Shown here: in pieces, positions 49,197-64,000 of the stretch | Layout: each line of letters begins with the position of its first letter | Position numbering within the stretch: position 1 is the first letter of the stretch | Source: an uncultured Rhizobium sp. | GTDB taxonomy: Bacteria; Pseudomonadota; Alphaproteobacteria; Caulobacterales; Hyphomonadaceae | NCBI GenBank assembly: GCA_964407665.1 | Contig: CAYOWK010000016.1 | Location: 13,288 to 77,287 of the forward strand | Length of the DNA: 64,000 bases | Direction: 5' to 3' | Position numbers and translations under genes: made by a program | Notes under the pieces: generated by a model | Databases searched by the model: none | Seen by the model: only the letters and a program-made list of their open reading frames with translations | What the model was told of the DNA's origin: nothing

Positions 49197-50021
49197 ATGC
49201 GTATGTCACTGAAAGGTGACATACTGGATCCTCCGATGCTGACCGATGTGAACGATCACCCCGTGTCCTCCGGTCCGCGGCGGCTTCTCGGCGCGGTCTC
49301 GATCGTCTTCGCGGTTCTGTTCAACGTCCCTTACGCCGTGCTGGCGGTGACGTTCGACTATCCGGCGATCCTGCGACGGCCGCCGGGCGAGATCCTCGAG
49401 TTCTTCGCTCAAGGCGGCGCCGGCCTGATCCTGACCTGGCATGCGTTCGCCCTCAGCGCGCTGGCGCTCGCGCCGTTTGCAATTGCCCTTTCGATCACCC
49501 GCGATCGACTCTGGCGCCAACCGGGACTGGCGGTCGGGGCGGCTGTTCTCGGCGCCCTCGCGGGCGTCATGCAGGCGGTCGGTCTCTGGCGCTGGGTTTT
49601 CGTGACGCCCGCGCTCGCCCGCACTTACACCGATCCGGCGGCCTCTGCGGACGCTGTGCTCAACGCCACGCATGCCCTCGACCTCATGAACCGGTTTGGC
49701 GGCGTCGCGATCGGCGAACATCTCGGGCAAACCCTGACCGCGCTTTTCGTGGCCTGCGTCGCGGGGCTTCAATGGCGCGAGAAGTCGCCGATCACGGCGA
49801 CAATCGGCATGCTAGCCGCCCTCGCCATCCTGGCCGGCACAGGGGAGGGGCTCGCAATCGCCCTCGGCGCGCCCGGCGACCTTTTCAGCCTCGCCACGAT
49901 TGCCGGATTCCTGGGCCTGACGGTCTGGCTGATCGCCACCGGCATAGCTCTGGTCCGCCTGCCGGCCGAACGGCCGGGGGCTGGCCCGGAACACCCCACG
50001 CTCAATGCCGTCGGCGCATAG
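49197..50021 (+). CDS. DUF4386-like integral membrane protein
   Basis: Start ATG 49197 (MRMSLKGD). Alternative start ATG 49236. Multi-TM. Divergent from tetR. Confidence 0.55.
   Translation: MRMSLKGDILDPPMLTDVNDHPVSSGPRRLLGAVSIVFAVLFNVPYAVLAVTFDYPAILRRPPGEILEFFAQGGAGLILTWHAFALSALALAPFAIALSITRDRLWRQPGLAVGAAVLGALAGVMQAVGLWRWVFVTPALARTYTDPAASADAVLNATHALDLMNRFGGVAIGEHLGQTLTALFVACVAGLQWREKSPITATIGMLAALAILAGTGEGLAIALGAPGDLFSLATIAGFLGLTVWLIATGIALVRLPAERPGAGPEHPTLNAVGA
49201..49224. promoter_or_regulatory. candidate TetR operator 2 (GTATGTCAC-TGAAAG-GTGACATAC)
   Basis: Perfect 9-bp arms sharing the GTCAC/GTGAC core with operator 1. Overlaps the first codons of the divergent gene. Confidence 0.4.
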
Positions 50022-50046
50022 GCGGGCGGCGTTCGACGAACTGACA

Positions 50047-52302
50047 ATGGATGCAGGACGGATCATGCTCGGGTCGCTCCGCACAACCGCGCTCGCCACA
50101 ACCCTTGCACTGCTGGTCGCTCCGTCCGGCTTGGGCCAGGAGGTTCCGGCTGTGCCTGCCTCCGTGGGCGGCGATGCGTGCCCGCCTGCGCCAGCCCTGT
50201 GCGCGCGCCCCCGCGTTGCGCTTGTGCTCTCGGGCGGCGGCGCGCTCGGCATCGCCCACATCGGCGTTCTGAAGACGCTGGAGCAGGCGGGCGTCCAGCC
50301 CGATATTGTGGTTGGCACCTCAATGGGGGCTGTTGTCGGCGGTCTCTATGCGCTGGGCTATTCGCCTGCCGAACTGGAGGACGCCGTCACGACGCTCGAC
50401 TGGCCGGCTGTCTTTGCGGGAAAACCGCCTCGCGACGCACTCTCCTACCGCCGGCGGCGCGAGGAGGAGACATTTCCGGCCGAGCTGGCGTTCAGTGTCG
50501 ACCGCAAGGGACTTCGTCTGCCGCGCTCGGTGGTCAAGGACCAGATGCTCAATCTGGCCCTGCGAAACCTTGTGTCCACGCCGCCGCTGACTTCGTTCGA
50601 CGACCTGTCCGTCCAGTTCCGCGCTGTGGCGACCGACATCGCCAGCGGCGAGCCCGTGGTTCTCGACAGCGGAGACCTTGCGGCGGCCATGCGTGCATCG
50701 ATGTCGGCGCCGGGGGTCTTTGCGCCGGAGCGGATCGGCGATCGCGTTCTGGTGGATGGCGGACTGAGCAAGAACATCCCGATAGATGTCGCGCGCGACC
50801 TCGGAGCCGACATCATCATCGTCGCGACGCTGCAGGGACCGCTTCGTCCGGCGACGGAGCTGCGGTCAGCGGTCGATGTCCTGGAGCAGTCCATGACGCT
50901 TCTGGTGAGGACAAACGAAGCCGCCCAGCTGGCTCTGCTCGAAGAAGACGATATTCGCATCGCGATCGACTATGGCGGCCTGTCGACGACGGACTTCGAC
51001 AGGGGCCGGGACCTGATCGCGATGGGTCGCGCCGCCGCCGACGCCGAGCTTGGCCGGATCGCTCCGTATGCGCGCAGCGGAGCCACAAGGCGGAAGCCGG
51101 AAACGCCGCAGGTCGACTTCATCCGGATCGAGAATGGCACCACGCTCGACGACGCCGTGATAGGCACACGCCTGTCCCAGGAGATCGGCGCCCCGCTCGA
51201 CACCGAGGCGCTGTCACGCGATGTGGAGACCATTGCGGCGCTGGGCCACTTCGAGCGGGTGTCGTACCGGCTTGCGACAGAGGGCGACACGGTCGGCCTG
51301 GTTGTCGAAGGGGCGCCCCGACCCGCAGACGTGGCGAACATGCGCCTGGGGCTCACGCTCGACAACGACTTCCAGGGTGCGGGCGACTATCGCGCTTCCC
51401 TTGAATACAGGTCGCCGCCGATCGACCGCTACGGCTCCGAGATCAGGATCGAAGCTGTGTTCGGCGACCGGTTCAGGACATCTGCCGAACTCTTCCAGCT
51501 CTTTGCCCCGGACCAGGCGCTCTTTCTGGCGCCGCGCGCCAACATCGCGGTCCGCAACGTTCCGCTCTACCGGGCGGACGGATTCAAGACCGGTTCCTAC
51601 CGCGCCTCCTACGCCGAAGCCCAGCTCGACGTGGGCGTGCAGTTCGGAGGCTGGGGCGAGGCGCGGCTTGGCGTGCAGCGGGGAACCGGCGAGGCCGAAC
51701 TGCGGGAAGGCTCCGCCGATCCGCCCTCGGCGCCAATCGAGATCGGCCAGCTTGTGGCATCCGCAGGGGTCGACACGCTGGACAACCCTTACTTCCCTTC
51801 GGAGGGCGTCCGGCTGTCGACGCGGTGGATCGCGGGGGATCCTGCCCTTGGCGCCCGTTCGTCGTTCCAGACGGTCGAGATCGATACGACGTTTGTCGGG
51901 TCACGCGGCGCCGACGCCCTGATCCTGCAGGCTGAGGGCGGGGCGACGGTGACGGGCGACCTGCCGATCGAATCCCTGTTCCGGGTCGGGGGACTGTTCA
52001 GCCTGTCGGGATACAGGTCCGAGGAGCTGACCGGCGAGGCCTACGGCGTCGCCCGCGCCATCTACCGGAGGCGGCTGAACGAGGCCGAGCCTCTCTTCTT
52101 CGGCGTACCCATCTACTGGGGCGGTTCGCTCGAGGCCGGCGCCGCATGGGCGGACCGCCGGGATGCCGACATTGACGATCTTGCGCTGGGCGGCAGCGTG
52201 TTCCTGTCGGCCGACACCCAGATCGGCCCGGTCTACCTGGCCTATGGCAGCTCCGAAGGCGGCCGGCAGTCCGTCTATCTGTTCGTGGGCCGGCCATTCT
52301 AG
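50047..52302 (+). CDS. patatin-like phospholipase with POTRA + Omp85 beta-barrel (PlpD-like type Vd autotransporter)
   Basis: Signal peptide. Patatin motifs ALVLSGGGALGIAHIGVL and GTSMGA (GxSxG). C-terminal Omp85-like barrel ending ...VYLFVGRPF. Confidence 0.75.
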   Translation: MDAGRIMLGSLRTTALATTLALLVAPSGLGQEVPAVPASVGGDACPPAPALCARPRVALVLSGGGALGIAHIGVLKTLEQAGVQPDIVVGTSMGAVVGGLYALGYSPAELEDAVTTLDWPAVFAGKPPRDALSYRRRREEETFPAELAFSVDRKGLRLPRSVVKDQMLNLALRNLVSTPPLTSFDDLSVQFRAVATDIASGEPVVLDSGDLAAAMRASMSAPGVFAPERIGDRVLVDGGLSKNIPIDVARDLGADIIIVATLQGPLRPATELRSAVDVLEQSMTLLVRTNEAAQLALLEEDDIRIAIDYGGLSTTDFDRGRDLIAMGRAAADAELGRIAPYARSGATRRKPETPQVDFIRIENGTTLDDAVIGTRLSQEIGAPLDTEALSRDVETIAALGHFERVSYRLATEGDTVGLVVEGAPRPADVANMRLGLTLDNDFQGAGDYRASLEYRSPPIDRYGSEIRIEAVFGDRFRTSAELFQLFAPDQALFLAPRANIAVRNVPLYRADGFKTGSYRASYAEAQLDVGVQFGGWGEARLGVQRGTGEAELREGSADPPSAPIEIGQLVASAGVDTLDNPYFPSEGVRLSTRWIAGDPALGARSSFQTVEIDTTFVGSRGADALILQAEGGATVTGDLPIESLFRVGGLFSLSGYRSEELTGEAYGVARAIYRRRLNEAEPLFFGVPIYWGGSLEAGAAWADRRDADIDDLALGGSVFLSADTQIGPVYLAYGSSEGGRQSVYLFVGRPF

Positions 52303-52420: not shown

Positions 52421-52468
52421 GGCGCGCCCGGAACGATTCGAACGTCCGCCCCCCCCAGATTCGTAGTC
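52421..52468. repeat. partial (3'-half) copy of tRNA-Arg = distal att site of integrated element
   Basis: GGCGCGCCCGGAACGATTCGAACGTCCG-(C)n-AGATTCGTAGTC matches the plus-strand complement of the 3' half of tRNA-Arg at 54375..54420 (~46/48). Confidence 0.75.
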
Positions 52469-52628
52469 CGCTCCCAAGGGATACGCGCAATTACGCCCTG
52501 ATGCTGGCGACTACGCTAGAGCCCTGACATATATAGATATTTCCGGTCCACTTGGTCATCTTGGCTACCGAGAGCAGCGCAGCCGTTCGCTCCCGCCTGC
52601 TTCCAATATGCTTCCAAGTTCGGGACCG

Positions 52629-53825
52629 ATGCCCAACGCCAAACGCAAGGAAAAGCTGACCAAGACCCTGGTCGATGGACTGTCGCCGGCCCGCTCCGAA
52701 TATGCGGTTTGGGATACCCAAGTGGAGGGCTTTCACGTGCGGGTGTCGCCTGCGGGCCTGAAGACACTATGCGTCTTCTACCGGTCGAAGAGGAACCAAG
52801 CCCGTCGCCGGTCTCTGGGGCGTTTCCCGACCGTCGGTGTCGAGGAAACACGCCAAGAGGCGAGGCAGCTGATCGCTGCGTCCAAACGGGGTGAGGACCC
52901 GTTCGGCAAGCAGGACGCCCTGAAGGCTGTCCCCAAGCTGAACGCCTTCTGGGACACTTACTGGGCCGAGCACGCGGTACCCAAGAAGGCTGCCCGGTCG
53001 GCGCATGAGGATCTGCGGCTCTGGCGCATCCATCTGAAGCCGGCTTTGGGCGATCTGTTCATCGATCAGATCGACGCGAAGACCGTGCGCAAGTGGCATG
53101 CGGACAGGAAGGGCACGCCCGGAGCGGCAAACCGTGCGCTGGCCCTGCTGTCCAAGATGATGAGCCTCGCAGTCGCCAATGAGCTTCGCCCCACCAACCC
53201 GTGCAAGCACATCCAGCGCTATCCCGAGAACAGGCGTGACCCGAACGTTGATCCGGAACTTGCGGTAAAGCTCTGGGGGCTGGCCCAAATTGAGGAGCGG
53301 AAAGGGGACGCCGGCGCAGCTCGTGTGATGATGCTCATCATGCTGACCGGCGCGCGGCGCGGGGAGGTCCTGCAGGCGCGTTGGCGGGACTTTGATCTCT
53401 CTTCGTCCATGCCGCTGTGGCGCGTGCCGACCGAGCACATAAAGGGCGGGGAACGCCGCGGCATCAACATCACCCGAAATCTCAGCGCGGACACCGTGGC
53501 GCTCCTCCGGTCTTGGAAGGGCGAAGCAGGATCAGACGATCTGCTGTTTCCGAGTGTCAAAGGCGAAGGGGCCGCTCGGTACGATATCCGAGATCCGTGG
53601 GATCGCATTCGCAGGGCTGCAGGTCGCCCGGAGCTGCGTATCCACGACCTCCGCCACATGTTTGCGACGCTAGCGATCTTCAATGGTCACTCGCTCGACG
53701 AGATCGGAGAAACCATCGGCCACCGGGATCCCACGACCACGCGCCGCTACGCGCATATTCTCGCTCGCACAAAAAGTCAGGTCGCCAACTCAGTCAGTTC
53801 AATCGTCATCGGAATAACAAAATGA
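52629..53825 (+). CDS. int: tyrosine-type site-specific integrase (P4-like, N-terminal arm-binding DUF4102-type domain)
   Basis: MPNAKRKEKLTKTLVDGL...YAVWDTQVEGFHVRVSPAGLKT N-terminal domain. C-terminal catalytic core R...HDLRH...Y (IHDLRHMFAT, RRYAHIL). Start chosen at ATG 52629. Confidence 0.85.
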   Translation: MPNAKRKEKLTKTLVDGLSPARSEYAVWDTQVEGFHVRVSPAGLKTLCVFYRSKRNQARRRSLGRFPTVGVEETRQEARQLIAASKRGEDPFGKQDALKAVPKLNAFWDTYWAEHAVPKKAARSAHEDLRLWRIHLKPALGDLFIDQIDAKTVRKWHADRKGTPGAANRALALLSKMMSLAVANELRPTNPCKHIQRYPENRRDPNVDPELAVKLWGLAQIEERKGDAGAARVMMLIMLTGARRGEVLQARWRDFDLSSSMPLWRVPTEHIKGGERRGINITRNLSADTVALLRSWKGEAGSDDLLFPSVKGEGAARYDIRDPWDRIRRAAGRPELRIHDLRHMFATLAIFNGHSLDEIGETIGHRDPTTTRRYAHILARTKSQVANSVSSIVIGITK

Positions 53826-54310
53826 CAGACTACCCAAAGTATCCCTTCGAAACGGAAGCGAAGACCAAGGTCGCAAAGGCGCTGATGCGCCGGATCCAGC
53901 GTGCCGATCAGACCCTCGAACTCGGCCGAGAAATCGCAGTCTTCCTGTTCGATGATCTTAACCGTGTAATCATCGTAGCGAAGGCTTTGTCCGGTGACCT
54001 GCAGGCCGCGATCGCGATTTTTGAAGAGCTACTACCGGGATGGGTCTACAAAGTTTGCCGATGCCATCTGTCGGATGACGCCTGGGTTATCCCCGACAGA
54101 AATGATCCGAAGCACGGCGCCCGGTTGAATGCCACGCTGGGGCCGTGTGAGAGACAGAGCGGGTGGAGCCACGGATTTGATGTCGATTTGAGGCCCCCAC
54201 GTGGCCCATACCCCGCCGCTGCACTCCTGGTGGCGACGATTGGAGGCGTCGACGTGGCTCGCGCACGTGTCATGGAGTACCAGAAGCAGCTCGAGACTCA
54301 GAGCATCTGA
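53822..54310 (+). CDS. hypothetical protein (162 aa), sole cargo of the mini-element
   Basis: ATGA overlap with integrase stop. No motif recognised (MTDYPKYPFETEAK...CRCHLSDDAW...). Hand-count gives 53822; track lists 53817. Confidence 0.5.
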   Translation: MTDYPKYPFETEAKTKVAKALMRRIQRADQTLELGREIAVFLFDDLNRVIIVAKALSGDLQAAIAIFEELLPGWVYKVCRCHLSDDAWVIPDRNDPKHGARLNATLGPCERQSGWSHGFDVDLRPPRGPYPAAALLVATIGGVDVARARVMEYQKQLETQSI

Positions 54311-54373
54311 GGACAACTTCGCTCCTGGAAGCTTCCGATGTTGAAACGCCCAATAGCACCGAAGACTGTTTAT

Positions 54374-54450
54374 TGGCGCGCCCGGAACGATTCGAACGTC
54401 CGACCCCCAGATTCGTAGTCTGGTGCTCTATCCAGCTGAGCTACGGGCGC
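54374..54450 (-). tRNA. tRNA-Arg (anticodon ACG)
   Basis: Reverse complement GCGCCCGTAGCTCAGCTGGATAGAGCACCAGACTACGAATCTGGGGGTCGGACGTTCGAATCGTTCCGGGCGCGCCA. 77 nt including CCA. Confidence 0.85.
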
Positions 54451-54778
54451 GCACTTGGGAGGGCGGGTTGTAGCGTCGAGGCCCCCGATGCGCAAGGGGG
54501 ACGCGGCGACTGAAATTTTCCTTCGTTGTCAGGGGGACGGCGCGTTCGGCGCGGATCTGCCCGCGGCGCCTCTTCGGGCGACGGGGCAGCCCGTCTGGCC
54601 GGTCAGGCTGTCTTCCGGGCCCCGCCAGGCTGCGTCTTCCGCCGGCAGATACAAATCGGCCCTTGCACGAATGTTGCATTTAAAAACAATGTTAGGCGGG
54701 ACCGGGGGCTGGGCATCCTTCATCCGGGGCGGGGAAGCAGGAGCCTGGGGGGCGATCCCCGAGGGGGGAGCCGAAGCC

Positions 54779-55339
54779 ATGAGTGCAGAGCCCAAGACGG
54801 CGCAGCTGCTGATGGAATGGCAGGGCGGGGCGGTGGACGCCCGCAACGCCCTGATCGCGCGCCTGCATCCGGAACTGTCGGTTATCGCTGCGGCGCGCCT
54901 GCGCAAGGACCGCAACTCGTCCCTGTCCACCGGCGATCTCATCAACGAGGCTGTCCTGCGCATCGCCACCGCCGAGGGACTGTCGGTGTCGGACCGCGCC
55001 CACATGCTGGCGCTTGCCTCCCGGGTCATGCGCAACATCCTGGTCGATCACGCCCGCTCCAAATCGTCCAACAAGCGCAAGCACCAGAAGGTCGAACTCT
55101 GCACCCGCATCGAAGGCGAACAACGGTTTGATCTGATCGGGCTCGATTCCGCGCTTGTCAGATTGAAGGTCGTCGACAGCGACCTCGCGGAGCTTGTCGA
55201 GATGCGGTATTTTGGCGGCATGACCATCACTGACGTTGCGGAAGTGACGGGCTGGTCCGAACCTACGGTCAAGCGCCGCTGGATGGTGGCCCGGGCCTGG
55301 CTGCTGGACTGCCTTGAAAATCAGGTGACCGATGACTGA
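54779..55339 (+). CDS. ECF-family RNA polymerase sigma factor (TIGR02999-like, kinase-associated ECF group)
   Basis: 186 aa. N-terminal TAQLLMEWQGGAVDARNALIARLHPEL motif typical of the ECF clade that pairs with Ser/Thr kinases. Sigma region 2 and 4 sequences present. Stop overlaps kinase ATG (ATGACTGA). Confidence 0.75.
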   Translation: MSAEPKTAQLLMEWQGGAVDARNALIARLHPELSVIAAARLRKDRNSSLSTGDLINEAVLRIATAEGLSVSDRAHMLALASRVMRNILVDHARSKSSNKRKHQKVELCTRIEGEQRFDLIGLDSALVRLKVVDSDLAELVEMRYFGGMTITDVAEVTGWSEPTVKRRWMVARAWLLDCLENQVTDD

Positions 55340-57725
55340 GGTTTCCCTCGACCGGGAAGCGCTCCGTCTGTTCGAGACCCTGCTGGAAACGGCGCCCGGC
55401 GACATCGAAGGCTGGCTGGCGGAACGGACGGCGGACCGTCCCGATCTTCTCAGCCGCATGCGTACGCTGCTGTCGGCGGACATGCGCGCCACGATGGCGA
55501 CGGGCGGCGCGGTGGAGTCGTTCGAGAGCTTCGATCCGCCCGAGCGCCTGGGCGCCTATCGCATCGGCGCGCCGATAGGACAGGGCGGCATGGGCTCTGT
55601 CTTTCATGCCGAGCGCGACAAGGGCGACTTTGCCCACAACGCAGCCGTCAAGATCATCAAGCCGGGTCTCCTGTCCGAGCGGCTGGTCGAGCGGTTCCGG
55701 CGCGAGCGGCAGATCCTCGCGGGCCTCAAGCATCCCAACATCGCCCAGCTCTACGATGGCGGCGAGACCGAGGAGGGCTCGCCCTACATCATCATGGAGT
55801 ATGTCGGCGGCCTGCCGATCCTCCAGTGGGCCGAGGCGCACGATGCCTCGCGCGAGGAACGCGTCGAGAAGTTCCGCCAGATCTGCACGGCGGTGGCGTT
55901 CGCCCACCGCAATCTCGTGGTGCACCGCGACATCACGCCGTCCAACGTCCTCGTCACGCCTGACGGCGTTGTGAAGCTGATCGATTTTGGCATCTCGCGG
56001 CCCGTGGATGAAGCCATCGCGGCCAGTCGCCCGGCCGGTCAGGCCTCGCTGCAGAGCCTCAGCCTGACGCCGGGCTACGCAGCGCCCGAGCGCCTCATCG
56101 GGGCCGACGTGTCGACGTCCGCCGACATCTATTCGCTGGGCAAGCTGCTGGAGAAGCTGCTCGCCAGCGAGGAGGTCAACCCCGAATTCGCGGCCATCGT
56201 CGCGCGGGCGTCCGCAGCTGTTCCGGCGGACCGCTATCCGACGGTCGAGGAGCTCTCGGCGGACCTCGACGCCTACCTTCAGAACCGTCCGGTAGCAGCC
56301 ATGCCCGGCGGCGGCGCCTATCGCTTCCGCAAGTTCATCCGCCGGCATCGCTTCGCCAGCATCGCCGTGGTGTCGGCGACCGCCATTCTTCTGAGCGCCT
56401 TTGGCGCAACCGCCGTCTCATACGTGAACGCCGAGAACGCCCGGGCGGCCGAGGCGCAAAGGTTCGGCGAGGTGCGCCAGCTGGCCAACTACCTGCTGTT
56501 CGACCTGAACGAGCAGCTTCGCCGCACGCCTGGCAACACGGCGGCCCGCGCCGACCTCGCGCAGAAGGCGCAGGGCTATCTGGAGGCGCTGGAAAAATCG
56601 CCGCTGGCCGACCGCGCCGTCAGGCTGGAGACGGCTACCGGCTTTCTGAGACTGGCGGAGATCCAGGGATCGCCCCTGGAGCGAAATCTGGGCGAGCGCG
56701 AAGCCGCCCGCGCCAACTTCGACAAGGCGCGGGCTCTGTTCGCAGCCCTGCGCATGGATTATGGCGACGCGACCGATATTCTGCTGCCGGAGTCCCGGCT
56801 CGAGACGAACGCGGGAATGGCCGCTCTCTATGGCGACGCGGACGCCGACAGTGCCCGCAAGCTGCTGGACCGGGCGCTGGCGCTGATCGAGCAGGTCCCC
56901 GAGACGGATCGCGGGCCAGAGTGGCATGTCGCGCGCGCCAATGTCGCCGAGTCCGATCTGGAATACATGGCCAGCAACGAACAGCCCGACGAACTCAAGG
57001 CGGCGGCGGAGGCCCAGATCGCCCGCATCCAGGCATGGCCCGAGGCCGCAAAGGCGGGGACGGATGACGAATTCCTGATCGCCACAGCGCGCTATAACCT
57101 AGGCGCGGCGTTCCAGCTGACGAGGGACGACGCCTCTGCCTTACCGCATTTCGCGGCTTCGCACGATGCTCTCGTTGCGCTTGAGGCCGCATCCCCGGGC
57201 GATGCCAACCTGCTGTACTGGATCGGGTGGGCGGGCGCCGAAGCCTACGCCGCAGGGGTCCGGCAGGATGACGCCTCCAAGTTCGAGCGCTTTCTGACGT
57301 CCTCCTCCGAGGCCTCCAGACGTTTGGCGGCCATCGAGGACAAGGACGAGTCGGCTTACGCGCTGAACATGATGTCGGGCGAGCTTTACGCCCAGCACCT
57401 CTCGAACGTTGGGCGCTATGAGGAGGCGATTGCCGAGCAGCGCCGCATCATCGACGAGCGCAAGCGCCGGATCGGCGGCGTGACCAACGAGCGTATCGGG
57501 ACCGATCTCGCCTTCAGCCAGATGATCCTTGGAACCATTGCCCGGAAGGCGGGAGACCGGGCGCTGACCTGCGAGATGTACACCAGCGCCGACGCGATCT
57601 TCACGCCCATCGACAAGGCCGGCAACCTTATTGCCTTCCAGGCTGCCTTCCTGCCGGGCATTCGCGCCAACGTGGACCGGTGCCGCAACGGCGAGCCCCT
57701 CTCGGCTTTCCAGCCCGTACGTTAA
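55332..57725 (+). CDS. serine/threonine protein kinase with TM segment and C-terminal TPR-like repeat domain
   Basis: Kinase subdomains GAPIGQGGMGSVFHA, AVKIIK, HRDITPSNVLV, DFGIS and APE. TM FASIAVVSATAILLSAF. Long helical repeat C-terminal region. Confidence 0.85.
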   Translation: MTEVSLDREALRLFETLLETAPGDIEGWLAERTADRPDLLSRMRTLLSADMRATMATGGAVESFESFDPPERLGAYRIGAPIGQGGMGSVFHAERDKGDFAHNAAVKIIKPGLLSERLVERFRRERQILAGLKHPNIAQLYDGGETEEGSPYIIMEYVGGLPILQWAEAHDASREERVEKFRQICTAVAFAHRNLVVHRDITPSNVLVTPDGVVKLIDFGISRPVDEAIAASRPAGQASLQSLSLTPGYAAPERLIGADVSTSADIYSLGKLLEKLLASEEVNPEFAAIVARASAAVPADRYPTVEELSADLDAYLQNRPVAAMPGGGAYRFRKFIRRHRFASIAVVSATAILLSAFGATAVSYVNAENARAAEAQRFGEVRQLANYLLFDLNEQLRRTPGNTAARADLAQKAQGYLEALEKSPLADRAVRLETATGFLRLAEIQGSPLERNLGEREAARANFDKARALFAALRMDYGDATDILLPESRLETNAGMAALYGDADADSARKLLDRALALIEQVPETDRGPEWHVARANVAESDLEYMASNEQPDELKAAAEAQIARIQAWPEAAKAGTDDEFLIATARYNLGAAFQLTRDDASALPHFAASHDALVALEAASPGDANLLYWIGWAGAEAYAAGVRQDDASKFERFLTSSSEASRRLAAIEDKDESAYALNMMSGELYAQHLSNVGRYEEAIAEQRRIIDERKRRIGGVTNERIGTDLAFSQMILGTIARKAGDRALTCEMYTSADAIFTPIDKAGNLIAFQAAFLPGIRANVDRCRNGEPLSAFQPVR

Positions 57726-57842: not shown

Positions 57843-57905
57843 TGATCCGGTTTCCCCGGCTTCTCCGCCTTAATCAGTAGAAGGTCCTGAAGGGGATGAA
57901 GCGAC

Positions 57906-58454
57906 ATGAACGACCCGATCCAGATTCCGGCGGAATACCTGCCCATCATCGACGCCATCTACACCGGCACGATTGTCTTCACAGCGGTCTGGCTGCTGCT
58001 GGTCCTGCTGATCATCCTGCGCCGCCGCGCCTCGAACCTCACGCCGATCCATGCCGCCAAGGTCAACCGCAACGCGACGCCTGACTTCCTGTCGGTCGAC
58101 CACAAGAAGCAGAAGCAGATGCTGAAGGACGGCGCGACCTACGACGCCGAACTCGACCGCCGCGACGCGAACCAGGAGAAGGCGGATCGCGAAACGCGCC
58201 GCGGGCCCGAGACGGCCATGTCCCGCATCGCCCGCCTGATTGCGCTGCTGATGTCGATCTTCACGCTCGCCACGATGATCGGCTCGGTCATCTTCAACGT
58301 GAACTACATCGGCGGGATGCTGCAGACCTACTCGGCTGGCGACCGCTTCATGTCGGTCATCACCAACCATCCGATCGCCACGTCCGTCGCCGTGATCGTC
58401 ATCGGCTACCACATCTACAGCTACATCGCCGGCAAGAAGTGGCGCCCGGCCTGA
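57906..58454 (+). CDS. 3-TM membrane protein, hypothetical (first gene of kinase/FHA/SPFH operon)
   Basis: 182 aa. TM1 IVFTAVWLLLVLLIIL. Charged middle region. Two C-terminal TMs. Confidence 0.5.
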   Translation: MNDPIQIPAEYLPIIDAIYTGTIVFTAVWLLLVLLIILRRRASNLTPIHAAKVNRNATPDFLSVDHKKQKQMLKDGATYDAELDRRDANQEKADRETRRGPETAMSRIARLIALLMSIFTLATMIGSVIFNVNYIGGMLQTYSAGDRFMSVITNHPIATSVAVIVIGYHIYSYIAGKKWRPA

Positions 58455-58519
58455 TCGCCAGTCTGATCGTCTGAAACCTGATCGCCAGCGCCCGCCAAAC
58501 ATCTCCAGGAACTGATCCC

Positions 58520-60115
58520 ATGGTCACCGAAACAATCACAGTCAGCGATCCCCGGATCCTCGCCGAATTCATCAAGCAGGACCGCTTCAAGGGCATCTTC
58601 GAGAAGCGGATCGGCGTCCCGCCGGACCACATGGCTCTGCTGATGCGCAATGGCGAGTTCGTCGACGCTTACATTGGCGCCCACTTCTCGGCTGGCGGCA
58701 TCATCCACCGGATGCGCGGTATCGTTGGCGGCTCGCACCAGATCAGCCTGCTGATTGCCGATCTCAAGACCTTCCAGCTCAAGATGCCCCTGCGGGCCAC
58801 AAGCGCGGACAATGTCGAGATCGTCGGAACGGCGTCCATCGACCTCCAGATCAATCCGGAGAAGCCGCAAAACATCATCGGCATCATGCAGGCGCGGAAG
58901 TTCCTGCTGAAGTCCGACATTCTCGAACGCATCAAGTCGCACATCTCCGACCGCGTCGTTGAAGCCGCCGTTGGCCGCATGAAGGCGGAAGAGCTGCGCG
59001 GCAATATCGGCTTGCAGGACAAGATCCAGGCCGACCTGATCACGGAAGTCGAGCGGGTCGTCGGCGACCTTGGCGTGCTGATCCGCGCCGTGTCGGTCGA
59101 ATGGGCGGTCAACGAGATCGAGCGCGAGGCGATGGACCGCGCTGTCGCCGAGCGGCAGCAGGAGCAGATGGACTACCGGCTCGCCACCATCAAGCGCGAG
59201 CTCGCGAGGACGATGGAATCCGAGACCGTCCAGATCCAGGCCAATGTCGATCTTGCGAAGCTCCAGGGCGCCAGCGAGGCCGAAATCGCGAAGATGGTGC
59301 TCGACAACGAGCTGTCCTTCGTCGACGCCCGCGAAACCGGCCAGCGCGTCCAGGAGCTGAAGGCGCTCCAGCACGAGATCGAGGTTCTGGAGCGCGAACG
59401 CGCTGTTCAGATGAAGAACGCGCTGGAAGACGCCGACCACGTCGTCAACCTGACGGAACGCCAGGCGAAGCTCAGCGCGCTCGAGCGGGACATCAAGAAG
59501 CTCGACGTCGAGCTGAAGATCCAGCTGGAGAGCGCCGAGGCGATGGCGAAGATCGCCATCCAGAAAGCTCAGGACGCCGCCGCCGTTGCGAAGATCGCCG
59601 CGCTTCAGGAGGTCGAGCTGAAAGGCTTCGCCGAGGAGACTGTCATCAAGGACAACTCGGCGAACAACCAGACCCAGCGCGAGATCAATGTCATCAACGC
59701 CAACGCGGCGGTCAAGCAGGGCGAGCTCGGCATTTACGCGGGCATGTCGCCCGAGCAGATCCTCGCCGTGAGCGCTGGTCTCAGCCCGGCTGTCGCGGCG
59801 GTGCTGGCCGAGCAGGCCAAGGCGTCGGGACAGGGCAACGCCCAGACCATGGCGATCATGCAGCAGATGGTCGATCAAGCTAACCGCGCGCACGTCCAGT
59901 CCGAGCAGCAGGCCCGCGCCATGTTCGAGATGGGCATGAAGGGCGCGGTCGGCGTCTCCCACGGCGCTGGCGGCAAGTCCGCAGGCGCCGCGTCCGCCGC
60001 CATGGGCGAGGAGCCCCCGAAGGCTGCCGGGTCCGAGTGCCCGAAATGCCATCACGTGAATGCGCTCGACATCCGCTTCTGCCGCAATTGCGGAACCCAG
60101 CTCCGGACCAACTGA
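58520..60115 (+). CDS. soluble SPFH/band-7 (flotillin-like) domain protein with long coiled coil and C-terminal zinc ribbon
   Basis: N-terminal ~230 aa with the SPFH fold pattern. Coiled coil of ~250 aa. C-terminal CPKCHHVNALDIRFCRNCGTQL (CxxC-x12-CxxC). Confidence 0.65.
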   Translation: MVTETITVSDPRILAEFIKQDRFKGIFEKRIGVPPDHMALLMRNGEFVDAYIGAHFSAGGIIHRMRGIVGGSHQISLLIADLKTFQLKMPLRATSADNVEIVGTASIDLQINPEKPQNIIGIMQARKFLLKSDILERIKSHISDRVVEAAVGRMKAEELRGNIGLQDKIQADLITEVERVVGDLGVLIRAVSVEWAVNEIEREAMDRAVAERQQEQMDYRLATIKRELARTMESETVQIQANVDLAKLQGASEAEIAKMVLDNELSFVDARETGQRVQELKALQHEIEVLERERAVQMKNALEDADHVVNLTERQAKLSALERDIKKLDVELKIQLESAEAMAKIAIQKAQDAAAVAKIAALQEVELKGFAEETVIKDNSANNQTQREINVINANAAVKQGELGIYAGMSPEQILAVSAGLSPAVAAVLAEQAKASGQGNAQTMAIMQQMVDQANRAHVQSEQQARAMFEMGMKGAVGVSHGAGGKSAGAASAAMGEEPPKAAGSECPKCHHVNALDIRFCRNCGTQLRTN

Positions 60116-60116
60116 G

Positions 60117-61265
60117 ATGATGACGGACCCCGTCAACGCCACAACAGTCAGCTCCTGCTGTTTTAAGACGGCGGCTGACGCGTCGGCCTCCTTCTGCGGC
60201 GACTGCGGCAAGCCCGTCCTGCGCTGCATGGCGTGGGCGGAGTGCGGCGGCCTGGTCGGCGACGACGGGCGCTGCACGGTCTGCGTCCGGCCCCAACTCT
60301 TTCTCGACAAGGGCGCCGTGCGGGAGGTGAAGGTCGGCGGACGCATGGTCCTGCCGCTCCTGTTCCGGAACGATGCAGCTGTGGGCCGTCCGCTGTTCGT
60401 AACCCGCGTATGGGTGAAGGAGGGCAATGGCGAGCGTGTCCAGCAGGAGCTGGCCTGGGAGCGTCTGGATGGCGGCATGGCGCTGCCGTGGTCGCTGCAG
60501 ACCAGCCCGCTCGATGTGGCAGGCCGGGTTCGCATCGAGATCAGCTTTGCAGTGGCCACGCGCTATCGCTGGAGGCAGGAGACGTTCCTCTTTGTCGCCG
60601 AACTCGACATGGAGGCCGAAGGCGGCGGCGAGCTGGTCATCAACCAGACAATCCACGCCTCGGACGCCGCCACCGCCTACGCGCCGATCCGCATCGATCC
60701 GTCGCGAATGGCCAAGGCTGCTGCAGCGATCCAGCCAGCGCAACTCGCCCTGGTGCGCGGTGAGAGGCTTGAACGGGCCGAGGCGATCCGCGGATATCCT
60801 GACGACGGCGCCATCCAGCGCGGCGCCCGGCTGCACTGGAAGGGCTTTGCCTCCAGCGAAGCCCCGATGGACGGGCCGATTACTGCGCCAGACAGCCTTC
60901 TGGGCTTTGGACGCGCACTGACCCGCCGCAGCGGCGGCGAGGGCGATGTCCGCCTGCTCGTGCGCGACGCGGACGGCGTCATCGACGACGGCCTGTCCGC
61001 CGCCATCTCACGCCGTCACCTCGATCTCTTCATCCAGGATGGCCGCCTCTATGTTCACGCCGCCGGCGGTACGGGCCTCCTCCTGAACGACCGCTCCCTT
61101 GGGCGCGGGTCGATCGCACCAATCCAGGACGGCGACACCCTCAGCGTCCTGCCGATGGCGAAGTCCGCCATCTCCCTCACGTTCAGCTTCAAGGCGCACC
61201 ACCGGATCGTGGAAGACATCACGATCCAGCGCGCACCGGCATTCAGGGAAGCCACACGCAGATGA
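60117..61265 (+). CDS. N-terminal double zinc-ribbon + C-terminal FHA-domain protein
   Basis: The ATG lies 1 bp after the previous stop. CCFKTAADASASFCGDCGKP...CTVCVRP Cys clusters. FHA sequence GRALTRRSGGEGDVRLLV...ISRRHLDLFIQDGRLYVHAAGGTGLLLNDRSL...DGDTLSV. Confidence 0.65.
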   Translation: MMTDPVNATTVSSCCFKTAADASASFCGDCGKPVLRCMAWAECGGLVGDDGRCTVCVRPQLFLDKGAVREVKVGGRMVLPLLFRNDAAVGRPLFVTRVWVKEGNGERVQQELAWERLDGGMALPWSLQTSPLDVAGRVRIEISFAVATRYRWRQETFLFVAELDMEAEGGGELVINQTIHASDAATAYAPIRIDPSRMAKAAAAIQPAQLALVRGERLERAEAIRGYPDDGAIQRGARLHWKGFASSEAPMDGPITAPDSLLGFGRALTRRSGGEGDVRLLVRDADGVIDDGLSAAISRRHLDLFIQDGRLYVHAAGGTGLLLNDRSLGRGSIAPIQDGDTLSVLPMAKSAISLTFSFKAHHRIVEDITIQRAPAFREATRR

Positions 61266-62782
61266 AGTGCCCATTCTGTCAGGCCGCAAACCCCGCCGAC
61301 GCCATCTACTGTGGCGAGTGCGGCAAGCGGATCGTTGAGAAACTGGCCTTCCAGGAAACGGACGCCAGCGCCTTCGCCAATGAATCGACTCGCCGCCCGT
61401 CCGATGGCAACCGTCACATACTGGCGCCGGGCGAGGTGTTCGCAGGCCGCTACACCATCGCCGCCGTCATTGGCGAGGGCGGCATGGGCACCGTCTACCG
61501 GGCCGACGACCGCGTCACCGGACAGAGCGTGGCGCTAAAGCTCGTTCGCGCCGACCGCCTCGCAGGCACAGGCGCTGTCCAGCGCATGATCCAGGAAGGC
61601 ATCACCTCCCGCGACATCCGCCATCCGAACGTCGTCGCCGTCTACGACGTGGGCGAGGCCAGCGGCCAGCCCTACCTCTCGATGGAGCATCTCAACGGCC
61701 TCTCGCTGCGGTCGTGGACCCGCCAGCAGATGGCCGCCGGAACCGACTGCTCGATGAAGGCGGCATCCCGCATCGTTCTCGAAATCCTTGCAGGCCTCGA
61801 AGCCGCGCATGCAGCAGGTGTCGTCCATCGCGACCTCAAGCCCGAAAACGTCATGCTGCTGTCGCAGCCGACGGACGACGCCGTGAAACTGAAGTTGCTG
61901 GATTTCGGGATCGCCCGCGCCGGCGGCGCCACCGACACTGGCATGACCTCGACCGGCACCGCCCGCTACATGGCGCCGGAGCAGGCGACGGCCCCGGACG
62001 CCGTGCAGCCCTCCGCCGATCTCTATTCGCTGTCGGTCATGTTCTACGAGCTGCTTGTAGGCGTGGTCCCGCAAGGCCACTGGCAGCCGCCGAGCGGCGG
62101 CCGGTCCGATGTGCCCCAGGGCATCGACGACCTCATCCAGCGCGGCCTCTCGAATGCGCCCCGGTCGCGCCCGCAGTCCGCCGCCGAGTACCGCGGCCTG
62201 CTGGAAACCGTGCTCAAGGGCGGGAAGGCTCCCAAGCCAGAACCCAAGCCAGAACCCAAGCCCGATCCGAAGCCGGTTCCGAATCCGTTCGCCAACATCT
62301 GGCCGCCAAAAGGGAAACAGTGGATCTGGTGGGGCGCCGCCGCCGCGGTTGCGGTCGCCGCCTTCGCGATGAGCGAGATGGACATCGATCCCGGCACGGG
62401 CCCCACTCCCGAGCCTGACTGGGTGCAGCGCGAAGACCCGGTCGGGCCCGTCATCGGCCCCACGCCGCCTCCGGCCCAGCCTTCGTTCACACAGCTGAGT
62501 GGCCGCTGGTATGACGATTTCGGCAATGCCTGGAGCGTCCAGGTCAATGGCAATGGCGGATTTTCAGGGCGCGCCACCAGCGGGGACCTGCGCGGGTGGA
62601 TCATGGAGGGCGGCTTCTCCAACGGCTACGCCCAGCTGACCATCGGCCAACCTGGCAACCCGGTGGCGAGCGTCTCAGGCACGTTCGACCAGTGCCACAT
62701 CTACTACAGCGCGCCGGACGCGATGGGCAACGTTGGTCCTCGCGAGATCCACTTCAACCACGGGGCCAATACCTCATGCTGA
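61262..62782 (+). CDS. serine/threonine protein kinase with N-terminal zinc ribbon, TM segment and C-terminal periplasmic novel repeat domain
   Basis: ATGA overlap with FHA gene. MKCPFCQAANPADAIYCGECGKRI zinc ribbon. Kinase motifs GEGGMGTVYRA, ALKLV, HRDLKPENVML, DFGIA and APE. PEPKPEPKP linker. TM WIWWGAAAAVAVAAFAM. C-terminal ~95-aa repeat unit. Confidence 0.8.
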   Translation: MKCPFCQAANPADAIYCGECGKRIVEKLAFQETDASAFANESTRRPSDGNRHILAPGEVFAGRYTIAAVIGEGGMGTVYRADDRVTGQSVALKLVRADRLAGTGAVQRMIQEGITSRDIRHPNVVAVYDVGEASGQPYLSMEHLNGLSLRSWTRQQMAAGTDCSMKAASRIVLEILAGLEAAHAAGVVHRDLKPENVMLLSQPTDDAVKLKLLDFGIARAGGATDTGMTSTGTARYMAPEQATAPDAVQPSADLYSLSVMFYELLVGVVPQGHWQPPSGGRSDVPQGIDDLIQRGLSNAPRSRPQSAAEYRGLLETVLKGGKAPKPEPKPEPKPDPKPVPNPFANIWPPKGKQWIWWGAAAAVAVAAFAMSEMDIDPGTGPTPEPDWVQREDPVGPVIGPTPPPAQPSFTQLSGRWYDDFGNAWSVQVNGNGGFSGRATSGDLRGWIMEGGFSNGYAQLTIGQPGNPVASVSGTFDQCHIYYSAPDAMGNVGPREIHFNHGANTSC

Positions 62783-63657
62783 TCTCTCGCACCCTGATCG
62801 CTGGACTGGCTGCGACTCTTCTGGCGGGCGTTTCCGCCTGCAAGGCGCCCATTCCGGGACGCACTGCGGAAGAGCAGGCGGCAAAATGGTCCTCCGCAGA
62901 GTGGCGGGACGACATCGGCAATATCTGGCAGGCCACTGTCGAGGGCGGCAAGGTGACGGCCAGAGGCGTCGCCGGCGCCTCGCAGGGCCTGACGCTCAGC
63001 GGCGCATTCACGGCAGAGGGCTTGCCCTACACGATCGCGCTGCCGGATGGCTCGGTGATCGCAGAAGGCGAGGCGAAGCTCGTCGACGAGAGTCATGCCC
63101 TCTTTGCAACCCGCCTGATCAATGGCGAGACCAACGCCCACGGGCTGCTGCACTTCAATCACGCAGCCACGATCTCCACGATGCTGGAAGCGGCTGGCGG
63201 CCAACCCATGCCGCAGGTCTCGGACCTCTCGGGCGCGTGGATGGACGATGGCGGCAATGTCTGGGCGGTCTCCATCGACCGTGACGGCAAGCTTCTCGGC
63301 GTCGGCGCGAGCGGCGCTGTGATCGGCGGCAAGTTCGAGGGCTCGCTGGCAGGGGGCAAGCTGACCTACGTCGCAACCGGGCCGGACGGATCGTCGATGG
63401 CCGGCGGCGGCGAGTGGGACGGCGGATGCCATGTCTCCTGGCGCACCCTCGCTGAAACGCCCCTGCTCGAAAACGGCGGCGCTCTGCACATCAACCACGC
63501 ACCTGGCCAGAACTGCGACGGTACATGGCAAGGTTCCGCCGAAACGCCGCTCGACGGCGCCGTCAACGCCGATTTGTCGGGCCCGCGTGATCCGGTTTCC
63601 GGAGAAACGACGCCATTAGCTGATGAGAGGGGTCCTGTGGACCTCACGCCGAAATAG
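62776..63657 (+). CDS. lipoprotein composed of two copies of the kinase-tail repeat domain
   Basis: The ATG overlaps the kinase stop. Lipobox LLAGVSAC. Two ~100-aa units, each with W-x-DD-x-GN-x-W ... H-(F/I)-N-H. Confidence 0.6.
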   Translation: MLISRTLIAGLAATLLAGVSACKAPIPGRTAEEQAAKWSSAEWRDDIGNIWQATVEGGKVTARGVAGASQGLTLSGAFTAEGLPYTIALPDGSVIAEGEAKLVDESHALFATRLINGETNAHGLLHFNHAATISTMLEAAGGQPMPQVSDLSGAWMDDGGNVWAVSIDRDGKLLGVGASGAVIGGKFEGSLAGGKLTYVATGPDGSSMAGGGEWDGGCHVSWRTLAETPLLENGGALHINHAPGQNCDGTWQGSAETPLDGAVNADLSGPRDPVSGETTPLADERGPVDLTPK

Positions 63658-63690
63658 GTCCCGGTTGGGGGCCTGGGGAGTCCGAACGTC

Positions 63691-64000
63691 ATGTCGCGCA
63701 GCAGGAAGCTTCTCGGCGGGTGCATCCCGGAGACGACGCCCGCTCCGGCGCCCCAGATGCAGGTGCTGGCCGCCGCCCAGCCGCCCAGCGAGGTCGATCT
63801 GCGTGACATGTGTTCCCCGATCGAGCACCAGTACAACATCGGCAGCTGCACGTCGCAGGCTGTGGTCGCCGCCCTCGAGTACCACCAGCGCCGCCTCTAC
63901 GGGCAGCACACCGATCTCTCGCGCCTCTTCCTGCACTTCAACGCGCGCCGCATGGCGGGCAATGAAGGCAAGGAGATGGGCTCATCCCTGCACCAGTGCC
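63691..64000 (+). CDS. papain-like (C1 family) cysteine peptidase, N-terminal fragment (continues beyond window)
   Basis: IEHQYNIGSCTSQAVVAALEY matches the C1 oxyanion-Gln-x5-catalytic-Cys (Q...GSCW) layout. ORF is open to the window end. Confidence 0.5.
   Translation, partial: MSRSRKLLGGCIPETTPAPAPQMQVLAAAQPPSEVDLRDMCSPIEHQYNIGSCTSQAVVAALEYHQRRLYGQHTDLSRLFLHFNARRMAGNEGKEMGSSLHQC

Follow-up and report, generated by a model that had tools for sequence, protein, structure and literature searches.

A conserved gene cassette linking an SPFH-fold protein, an FHA protein, a Hanks kinase and papain-like peptidases: a possible phosphorylation-gated proteolysis module

Analysis of a 64,000-nucleotide stretch of DNA from an uncultured Rhizobium sp. 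(Hyphomonadaceae in the GTDB lineage; contig CAYOWK010000016.1, positions 13,288 to 77,287; the whole stretch is referred to as the window) revealed a row of plus-strand genes at its 3' end. They encode a protein with three transmembrane (TM) segments (A), an SPFH protein (B), a protein with a zinc module and an FHA domain (C), a Hanks Ser/Thr kinase (D), a lipoprotein (E) and a C1 peptidase (F1). The locus raises the question of whether these genes belong together and, if so, what they do. The original prediction, made from the sequence alone, had described them as a coupled operon without a counterpart among named systems. Comparison across genomes gives a solid answer to the first part: the cassette is a real, conserved and uncharacterized gene cluster. 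For the second part, we tentatively propose a membrane-proximal, phosphorylation-gated, SPFH-scaffolded proteolysis module in an envelope-stress response, with a probability of about 0.45.

Open reading frames (ORFs) on the plus strand were confirmed at 57906-58454 (A, 182 amino acids), 58520-60115 (B, 531 amino acids), 60117-61265 (C, 382 amino acids), 61262-62782 (D, 506 amino acids), 62776-63657 (E, 293 amino acids) and 63691-64000 (F1, cut at the window end). An exact-match look-up of B led to the same locus on longer contigs (L001 to L003; loci are designated by L numbers), on which the rest of F1 was seen. In these identical contigs, E is followed by three tandem C1 peptidase genes (F1, F2 and F3) and then by an unrelated short-chain dehydrogenase gene. 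The six ORFs had been predicted together with start/stop overlaps at three junctions. The C/D junction is a genuine ATGA overlap at 61262, but the B/C junction, TGAGATGATG at 60113-60122, consists of a stop codon, one spacer base and then ATG and is not an overlap, and D and E share the 7 nucleotides ATGCTGA (62776-62782) rather than ATGA. The spacing is 65 nucleotides between A and B and 33 nucleotides between E and F1. Neither a sigma-70-like promoter nor a plus-strand intrinsic terminator was found in the interval from A to the third peptidase gene. Because the junctions are tight or overlapping and the interval lacks such internal signals, A-B-C-D-E-F1-F2-F3 is tentatively read as a single transcription unit, as part of the proposal of a gated-proteolysis module.

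The conservation of the cassette was analyzed with a profile of B, which was searched against one-genome-per-species collections and yielded 80 loci. The window proteins were compared with these loci by tblastn, and only loci with enough flanking sequence were counted for each gene. A was found next to B in all 76 loci, C in 74 of 76, D in 70 of 71 and a C1 peptidase of the F type in 61 of 62. C, D and F were all present in 60 of 62 informative loci. The core order is A-B-C-D-F, with E optional, and B is 36 to 56% identical across these loci, which come from several phyla. The hosts are Hyphomonadaceae (Hyphomonas and Henriciella), Sphingomonadaceae, Acidobacteriota, Pirellulaceae/Planctomycetota, Gemmatimonadaceae/Gemmatimonadota, one gammaproteobacterium and others; Hyphomonadaceae supply more than half of the 80 loci. 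Variation concerns the number of peptidases (one to three), a second kinase, a swapped order of C and D, and the relocation of C in one locus (L026). The cultured bacterium Hyphomonas neptunium ATCC 15444, the genome of which is complete, carries a minimal five-gene cassette that includes HNE_1635 (CP000158.1, about 1.669-1.675 Mb), with a divergent sigma/kinase pair. The coupled operon of the original prediction thus survived the co-occurrence test: in about 60 species genomes, which represent several phyla, the genes occur in the same order. The members are publicly annotated as "hypothetical," "FHA domain-containing," "zinc ribbon domain-containing," "Band 7 domain-containing" or "C1 family peptidase." No named system emerged from PADLOC, from Pfam or NCBIfam names or from the searchable literature, in which combinations of SPFH, FHA, kinase and cysteine protease and the H. 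neptunium locus tags retrieved no description of the cassette.

Structure models, as suggested by the original prediction, were made for B and C. The AlphaFold2 model of B (mean predicted local distance difference test score [pLDDT], 74) comprises an SPFH domain (residues 1 to 195), a helix of about 200 residues, further helices, a disordered Gly-rich linker and a zinc ribbon (residues 507 to 524). In a Foldseek search of the Protein Data Bank (PDB), all of the top 50 matches to this model were SPFH-fold proteins, including HflK/C, stomatin, prohibitin, flotillin, QmcA and major vault protein; the best was HflK/C (7vhq, E=7e-10). The model shows the alpha/beta SPFH fold followed by the long helix. 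B from the window was not recognized as an SPFH protein by Pfam, by NCBIfam or by a profile search of PDB sequences. Pfam Band_7 (PF01145) had no match over its gathering score in the window protein and matched 1 of 18 homologs (E=9e-5), and precomputed PF01145 annotation is present on some database homologs. The YdjI-type model Band_7_1 did not match B. On the basis of the model, B is therefore assigned to the SPFH superfamily by fold only. The sole Pfam match to B was Zn_Ribbon (E=4.7e-5) at the C terminus, where C507, C510, C521 and C524 are invariant in 67 homologs. The earlier reading of B as an SPFH, coiled-coil and zinc-ribbon protein is supported by the fold search and by Pfam Zn_Ribbon, with the SPFH part missed by the family libraries. 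The N-terminal membrane anchor of SPFH proteins was not seen in B, in which no hydrophobic segment exceeded the scan threshold.

The model of C (pLDDT, 87; predicted template modeling score, 0.84) revealed an eight-cysteine zinc module (residues 1 to 58), a beta-sandwich (approximately residues 59 to 168), a disordered linker and an FHA domain (approximately residues 208 to 373). The eight cysteines (C14, C15, C27, C30, C37, C43, C53 and C56) are invariant in the homolog alignment. The middle domain is a generic beta-sandwich with structural matches to ApaG and Fn3-like domains. The FHA domain scored above the Pfam gathering score and has the FHA beta-sandwich fold with the Gly-Arg and Ser-x-x-His loops; the phospho-threonine-binding residues GR and SRRH are invariant across homologs. 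It had been predicted that B, C and D each carry a CxxC...CxxC zinc ribbon at a terminus facing its neighbor. This was confirmed by Pfam and conserved cysteines for the C terminus of B and the N terminus of D, but C has the eight-cysteine module instead of a simple ribbon.

Hydropathy analysis of A agreed with its earlier description as a 3-TM protein. The first of its three hydrophobic segments is followed by a charged loop of about 65 amino acids, which is predicted from the positive-inside rule to be cytoplasmic. An alignment of 76 homologs revealed two invariant motifs in this loop, RR-x-A-x-N-L-T and PDFL-x-VD-x-x-AR-x-x-A-x-x-RG, and position 46, the threonine of the NLT motif, is Ser or Thr in 100% of these homologs. 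An N-glycosylation sequon was ruled out as an explanation of the NLT motif, since the loop is cytoplasmic by the positive-inside rule. No family match to A was obtained in Pfam or NCBIfam.

D consists of an N-terminal zinc ribbon (Pfam DZR, E=1.6e-4), a Hanks kinase domain (Pfam, E=9e-43), a Pro/Lys-rich linker, a likely TM segment and a C-terminal ectodomain of about 100 amino acids. The likely TM segment, at approximately residues 353 to 372, was read by eye and lies under the hydropathy threshold. The four cysteines of the ribbon are at least 90% conserved in 75 homologs, as are the Gly-rich loop and the HRDLKPEN, DFG and APE motifs, all of which are intact; judged from these catalytic motifs, D is an active Hanks kinase. 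A domain hidden Markov model located the ectodomain C-terminally in the D homologs of at least 55 loci. Within it, a Trp, a Cys-His pair, an H-x-N-H motif and a Cys at the end are conserved. The repeats of E, which had been described as a repeat lipoprotein, turned out to be this same domain: when the D tail was compared with E by pairwise BLASTP, two tandem copies of the D ectodomain emerged (E=7e-13 and 3e-10). The lipoprotein part of that description stands, with a lipoprotein signal and the lipobox VSAC. E itself had no family match in Pfam or NCBIfam. Standalone, E-like copies of the ectodomain occur in a subset of loci only, and E is regarded as an optional accessory of the cassette. Because of the conserved cysteine and histidine residues, the ectodomain of D and the repeats of E may form a disulfide-stabilized and possibly metal-binding sensor. 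An ectodomain profile retrieved avidin and rhizavidin weakly from the PDB (E=8e-5 to 3e-3, up to 70 positions); hhalign aligned only the first 30 residues with streptavidin (probability, 25%), and Pfam Avidin matched 3 of 22 members (E of 0.009 or above). In six loci (L061, L062, L064, L067, L069 and L080) two tandem D-like kinases were found, the first without and the second with the ectodomain.

The peptidases F1, F2 and F3 (334, 332 and 318 amino acids on contig L001) follow E in tandem and are xylellain-like C1A enzymes. A single C1 peptidase had been predicted; its class was confirmed on the identical contigs by Pfam Peptidase_C1 (E=2e-15 to 6e-11), but three copies are present. The catalytic Gln, Cys, His and Asn of all three align with those of papain. 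The signal peptide and I29-type prodomain of classical C1A enzymes were not found: F1 to F3 have no N-terminal hydrophobic segment and, according to Pfam, no I29 prodomain, and about 30 residues precede the mature domain. F1, like C, has no hydrophobic segment over the threshold, and F2 and F3 have one each, inside the peptidase domain. F1 to F3 are papain-family enzymes with an intact catalytic set and no export signal. The nearest solved relative of F1 is xylellain (PDB entry 3ois, E=4e-23), and the alignment reaches into the short region N-terminal to the mature domain. In the xylellain structure, a short N-terminal region covers the active site.

Two features of F are conserved across loci: an N-terminal motif, L-x-G-C-L-x-E..AP..L, and a C-terminal extension of about 90 amino acids that ends in a basic amphipathic helix (...LR..L...L..AK.DFR.RLRG). 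Shorter C1A relatives without the tail lie in unrelated gene neighborhoods; the tail and the L-x-G-C-L-x-E motif are judged specific to the cassette. A lipobox was considered for the L-x-G-C motif and ruled out, there being no hydrophobic h-region. The consensus of the tail is ...FRxRLRGPGxGGGY, and in one subfamily the protein ends in RLRGPGAGGGY; some of these proteins have an unusual Gly/Tyr-rich repeat of two to five tandem GPGAGGGYD(R/K) units at the C terminus. Such tandem tails were seen, for example, in L042 (13982-15058), L046 (14829-15899), L051 (14015-15106) and L056 (7924-8994).

Upstream of A, the window contains an extracytoplasmic function (ECF) sigma factor gene of the PF07638 family (54797-55339, plus strand; Pfam Sigma70_ECF, E=2e-31), the start of which is uncertain, as callers on identical contigs give window position 54488 or 54780. 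It overlaps a gene for a second Hanks Ser/Thr kinase, K0 (55332-57725, plus strand; Pfam Pkinase, E=5e-37; TM segment at residues 344 to 362). The C-terminal region of K0, about 430 amino acids, gave only a Pfam match below the cut-off (TPR_12, 21.5 bits; cut-off, 30.1). An ECF-type promoter-like motif, TGATCCGGTTTCCCCGGCTTCTCCGCCT, is located at 57843-57870 on the plus strand, about 62 to 63 nucleotides upstream of the ATG of A. Its consensus is TGA(C/A/T)CCG-N16-17-(G)CGC(C/T)T, with TGAnCCG as the -35 element and CGCCT as the -10 element, and in most sigma-linked loci it lies 59 to 67 nucleotides upstream of the start of A. The 64-kb window contains only one other, loose match to it. The sigma factor and K0 were both found within 10 kb of the cassette in 34 of 52 loci, usually divergent from A. 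The motif was present in 34 of 45 sigma-linked loci versus 7 of 32 others (Fisher p=6e-6). Because this shared motif correlates with the presence of the sigma factor, the sigma/K0 pair, noted in the original prediction simply as lying upstream of the operon, is probably its regulator rather than a mere neighbor. The linked sigma factors carry SLSTGDLVNEA in region 2.2, with Ser/Thr at the ECF43 phospho-acceptor site and one Asp retained; in the ECF43 consensus, QTTA, Thr takes the place of the acidic DxxD residues. With these residues and the adjacent Hanks kinase, which together with a PF07638-type sigma factor characterizes ECF43 pairs, the sigma factor resembles the ECF43 group. ECF43 sigma factors are activated through phosphorylation by their cognate Hanks kinase (PMC13147305).

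Copies of the motif also precede a linked gene for a 4-TM protein of about 148 amino acids and the relocated C gene of L026, the pattern expected of a small regulon. The 4-TM protein, which has no Pfam match, was found in 34 loci (e.g., L035:8923-9366 and L036:15432-15878) in varying position and orientation, and the window contains no homolog of it. Its gene has its own copy of the motif in many loci, such as L005, L010, L014, L017, L027 and L035. Beside it, about 10 loci encode a lipoprotein of about 365 amino acids without a family match. In L026 (10490-11680), C is detached from the cassette and lies beside a divergent sigma/kinase pair, with its own motif copy. In a clade with K0 after the peptidase, the motif lies between the two genes on the minus strand, antisense toward the peptidase (L007:15915, L006:15957, L014:15956 and L010:11907). 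A calcineurin-like (PPP-type) phosphoesterase gene was found near the cassette in L027 (7378-8121), L013, L033, L034, L040, L041, L043, L046 and L065; its product is plausibly the Ser/Thr phosphatase of the pathway.

The favored model has two tiers, transcriptional induction by the sigma factor and K0 followed by post-translational gating by D, E, C, A, B and F, and it is favored because the cassette joins the logic of SPFH-protease pairs with that of kinase/FHA switches. All its steps beyond the domain assignments and the conservation data are inferred. In the first tier, an envelope signal would activate K0, which would phosphorylate the ECF43-like sigma factor, and the sigma factor would transcribe the operon from the TGAnCCG-N16-17-CGCCT promoter. 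B, which lacks a TM segment, would oligomerize into a scaffold at the inner membrane, on its cytoplasmic side, and be anchored there by A through the conserved loop. D may sense a second periplasmic cue via its His-rich ectodomain, modulated by the secreted paralog E where this is present. D would then phosphorylate a threonine, the best candidate being T46 in the juxtamembrane NLT motif of A. When the FHA domain of C reads this phospho-threonine, the SPFH complex would assemble differently or change in how open it is, and its state would determine the place and time of action of the C1 peptidases, which are cytoplasmic and probably latent. Latency is suggested by their N-terminal segment, which resembles the active-site-covering pro-region of xylellain, and through the basic tail at the C terminus they would dock to the scaffold or the membrane.

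Several points weigh against this model. No adjacent sigma/kinase pair and motif were found in 18 of 52 loci; because these amount to about a third of the loci, ECF control would be lineage specific. A PPP-type phosphatase gene is linked to the cassette in 9 loci only and is absent from the window. The attachment of B to the membrane via A is assumed from gene adjacency alone. An avidin-like fold of the ectodomain is a weak and tentative assignment. Finally, the patchy phyletic distribution would also fit a conflict system.

Such a conflict system is the main rival, and we consider it unlikely. It would be an anti-phage or abortive-infection system in which D or the SPFH assembly senses an infection or a disturbed membrane and the C1 peptidases are set free as toxic effectors that degrade proteins of the host or the phage. 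The patchy spread over at least five phyla suggests horizontal transfer, and one to three diverging protease paralogs per locus are common for effectors. Latent cytoplasmic proteases also resemble the effector logic of known conflict systems (PMC7159879). In PADLOC-DB 2.0, the kinase domain of D scored well against the defense models PD-T4-6 and MADS6; however, these and PglW, the only models matched, are generic for kinase domains, and A, B, C, E and F had no match. Neither the plasmid nor the phage collections searched by tblastn contained a relative of B, and the flanking ORFs that were read look metabolic, transport related or regulatory rather than like a defense island. The predominance of Hyphomonadaceae among the 80 loci suggests a trait of the lineage and not one that varies between strains, and control by an ECF sigma factor is typical of envelope-stress regulons. 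No SPFH-based defense system was found in the searchable literature.

A role in membrane repair or remodeling similar to that of the Psp system is rather improbable. B would then play the part of YdjI in recruiting repair factors to sites of membrane damage, and the peptidases would process components or leave the cell unconventionally, e.g., in vesicles. An SPFH protein with a C-terminal zinc ribbon is indeed also represented by Bacillus subtilis YdjI, the tether of PspA (PMC11237479; PMC10936438), an envelope-type sigma/kinase pair adjoins the cassette, and A and the linked 4-TM protein fall into the same putative regulon. However, Band_7_1 misses B, and no PspA/ESCRT-III protein was noted in the cassette or in the flanking ORFs that were read, a systematic search not having been made. 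Moreover, the conservation of the C1 peptidase (61/62) equals that of the scaffold and speaks for a core output rather than an accessory.

More improbable still is an SPFH cage, closed or gated, that sequesters the peptidases, with their basic and GPGAGGGY tails serving as cargo peptides, until phospho-threonine recognition by the FHA domain opens or assembles it. Such a phospho-gated proteolytic nanocompartment would be a bacterial counterpart of vault or encapsulin cargo loading, used for self-digestion or defense. Chance adjacency of common, unrelated families in one genome is scarcely credible: although each of the domains concerned (kinase, FHA, zinc ribbon and C1) is widespread and Pfam alone links none of them, it is excluded by the conserved gene order across loci of several phyla at 36 to 56% identity in B, and the overlapping or near-overlapping junctions, the shared promoter motif and the context-specific features (the F tail, the motifs of A and the ectodomain of D) also argue against it.

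A neighboring integrase had led to the suggestion that the operon might be accessory, as part of a tRNA island. Analysis of this region revealed a minimal integrative element of 1.95 kb (52421-54420) with direct repeats of the 3' half of tRNA-Arg(ACG) at both ends (48-nucleotide att repeats at 52421-52468 and 54375-54420). It contains a tyrosine integrase gene (52608-53825) and one ORF of 163 amino acids without a family match, and its G+C content is 0.62 versus 0.67. The element does not include the operon, which is located 5' of the tRNA. The operon as integrase-island cargo was ruled out, as the att repeats bound a separate insertion across the tRNA, and because the element is self-contained and on the other side of the tRNA, it is uninformative on accessory status; the suggestion was dropped. 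To the left of the element, positions 50005-52302 encode a 765-amino-acid protein with Patatin, POTRA and Omp85 domains, the architecture of PlpD-like outer membrane phospholipases.

SPFH proteins (flotillins, stomatins, prohibitins and HflK/C) are universal, and to our knowledge it is largely unclear how their assemblies are switched on and off. In the cassette, one compact and conserved operon couples an SPFH scaffold with a sensor kinase, with a reader of phospho-threonine and with a protease partner of a new class. If the favored model is true, bacteria would have their first example of an SPFH function gated by phosphorylation, ECF43-type sigma factors would have a new regulon, and cytoplasmic bacterial papain-like peptidases, the biology of which is poorly understood, would have a role. 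With H. neptunium ATCC 15444, the cassette is available in a cultured bacterium with a complete genome.

SPFH proteins are paired with proteases in several known systems: HflK/C with FtsH in Escherichia coli, the archaeal stomatin PH1511 with the NfeD/STOPP protease PH1510, and prohibitin with the m-AAA protease. Like these, the cassette encodes an SPFH-fold protein with a long helix beside a protease that it presumably controls. In contrast to them, B has no TM anchor of its own, has a separate 3-TM neighbor in A and ends in a zinc ribbon; the protease is a C1A cysteine peptidase instead of an AAA+ or ClpP-like serine protease; and the conserved core of the cassette also includes a Hanks kinase and an FHA reader.

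The domain order of B, i.e., SPFH domain, coiled coil and C-terminal zinc ribbon, is known from YdjI of the ydjFGHI psp operon (PMC11237479) and from archaeal SPFH, coiled-coil and zinc-ribbon proteins in Meth_adaptin ESCRT loci (PMC10936438). The operon partners there also include zinc-ribbon and small membrane proteins (PMC11237479; PMC10936438). The partners in the cassette, however, are a kinase, an FHA protein and a C1 peptidase, with no PspA/ESCRT-III, TPM or Vps4 partner; PspA and TPM were absent from the Pfam-annotated gene calls of L001 and the H. neptunium locus, and the other loci were not systematically scanned.

In the threonine phosphorylation pathway of the H1 type VI secretion system (T6SS) of Pseudomonas aeruginosa, PpkA, Fha1 and PppA act with TagQRST, and a TM Hanks kinase with a periplasmic sensor is combined with a dedicated FHA adaptor to switch a membrane-associated machine at the post-translational level; the kinase is modulated by co-sensors that are periplasmic or lipoproteins. 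The cassette similarly pairs the TM Hanks kinase D with an FHA protein, and E might act as a lipoprotein co-sensor. It differs in that T6SS genes are lacking, an SPFH/protease pair forms the output and the phosphatase is absent from the window, being of the PPP type in the few loci with one. The sigma/K0 pair can be compared with the ECF43 sigma/Hanks kinase pairs EcfP-PknT of Vibrio parahaemolyticus and EcfK-PknS of Xanthomonas citri (PMC13147305). A PF07638-family sigma factor with Ser/Thr in region 2.2 likewise lies next to a TM Ser/Thr kinase, a likeness based on sequence features, but a regulon made up of an SPFH-kinase-FHA-protease operon and a 4-TM protein is undescribed for the known pairs. 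F1 is similar to xylellain, the C1A peptidase of Xylella fastidiosa (3ois), in an alignment that includes the short N-terminal region; in contrast, F has the C-terminal extension of about 90 amino acids with the basic helix, with or without GPGAGGGY repeats, and the L-x-G-C-L-x-E motif. Architectures that combine a zinc ribbon with a kinase or with an FHA domain are common. Apparently undescribed is the conserved way in which they are combined here with a 3-TM partner of their own and with tailed C1 peptidases, under an ECF43-like sigma factor; PADLOC, the family libraries and the searchable literature contained no match to this combination.

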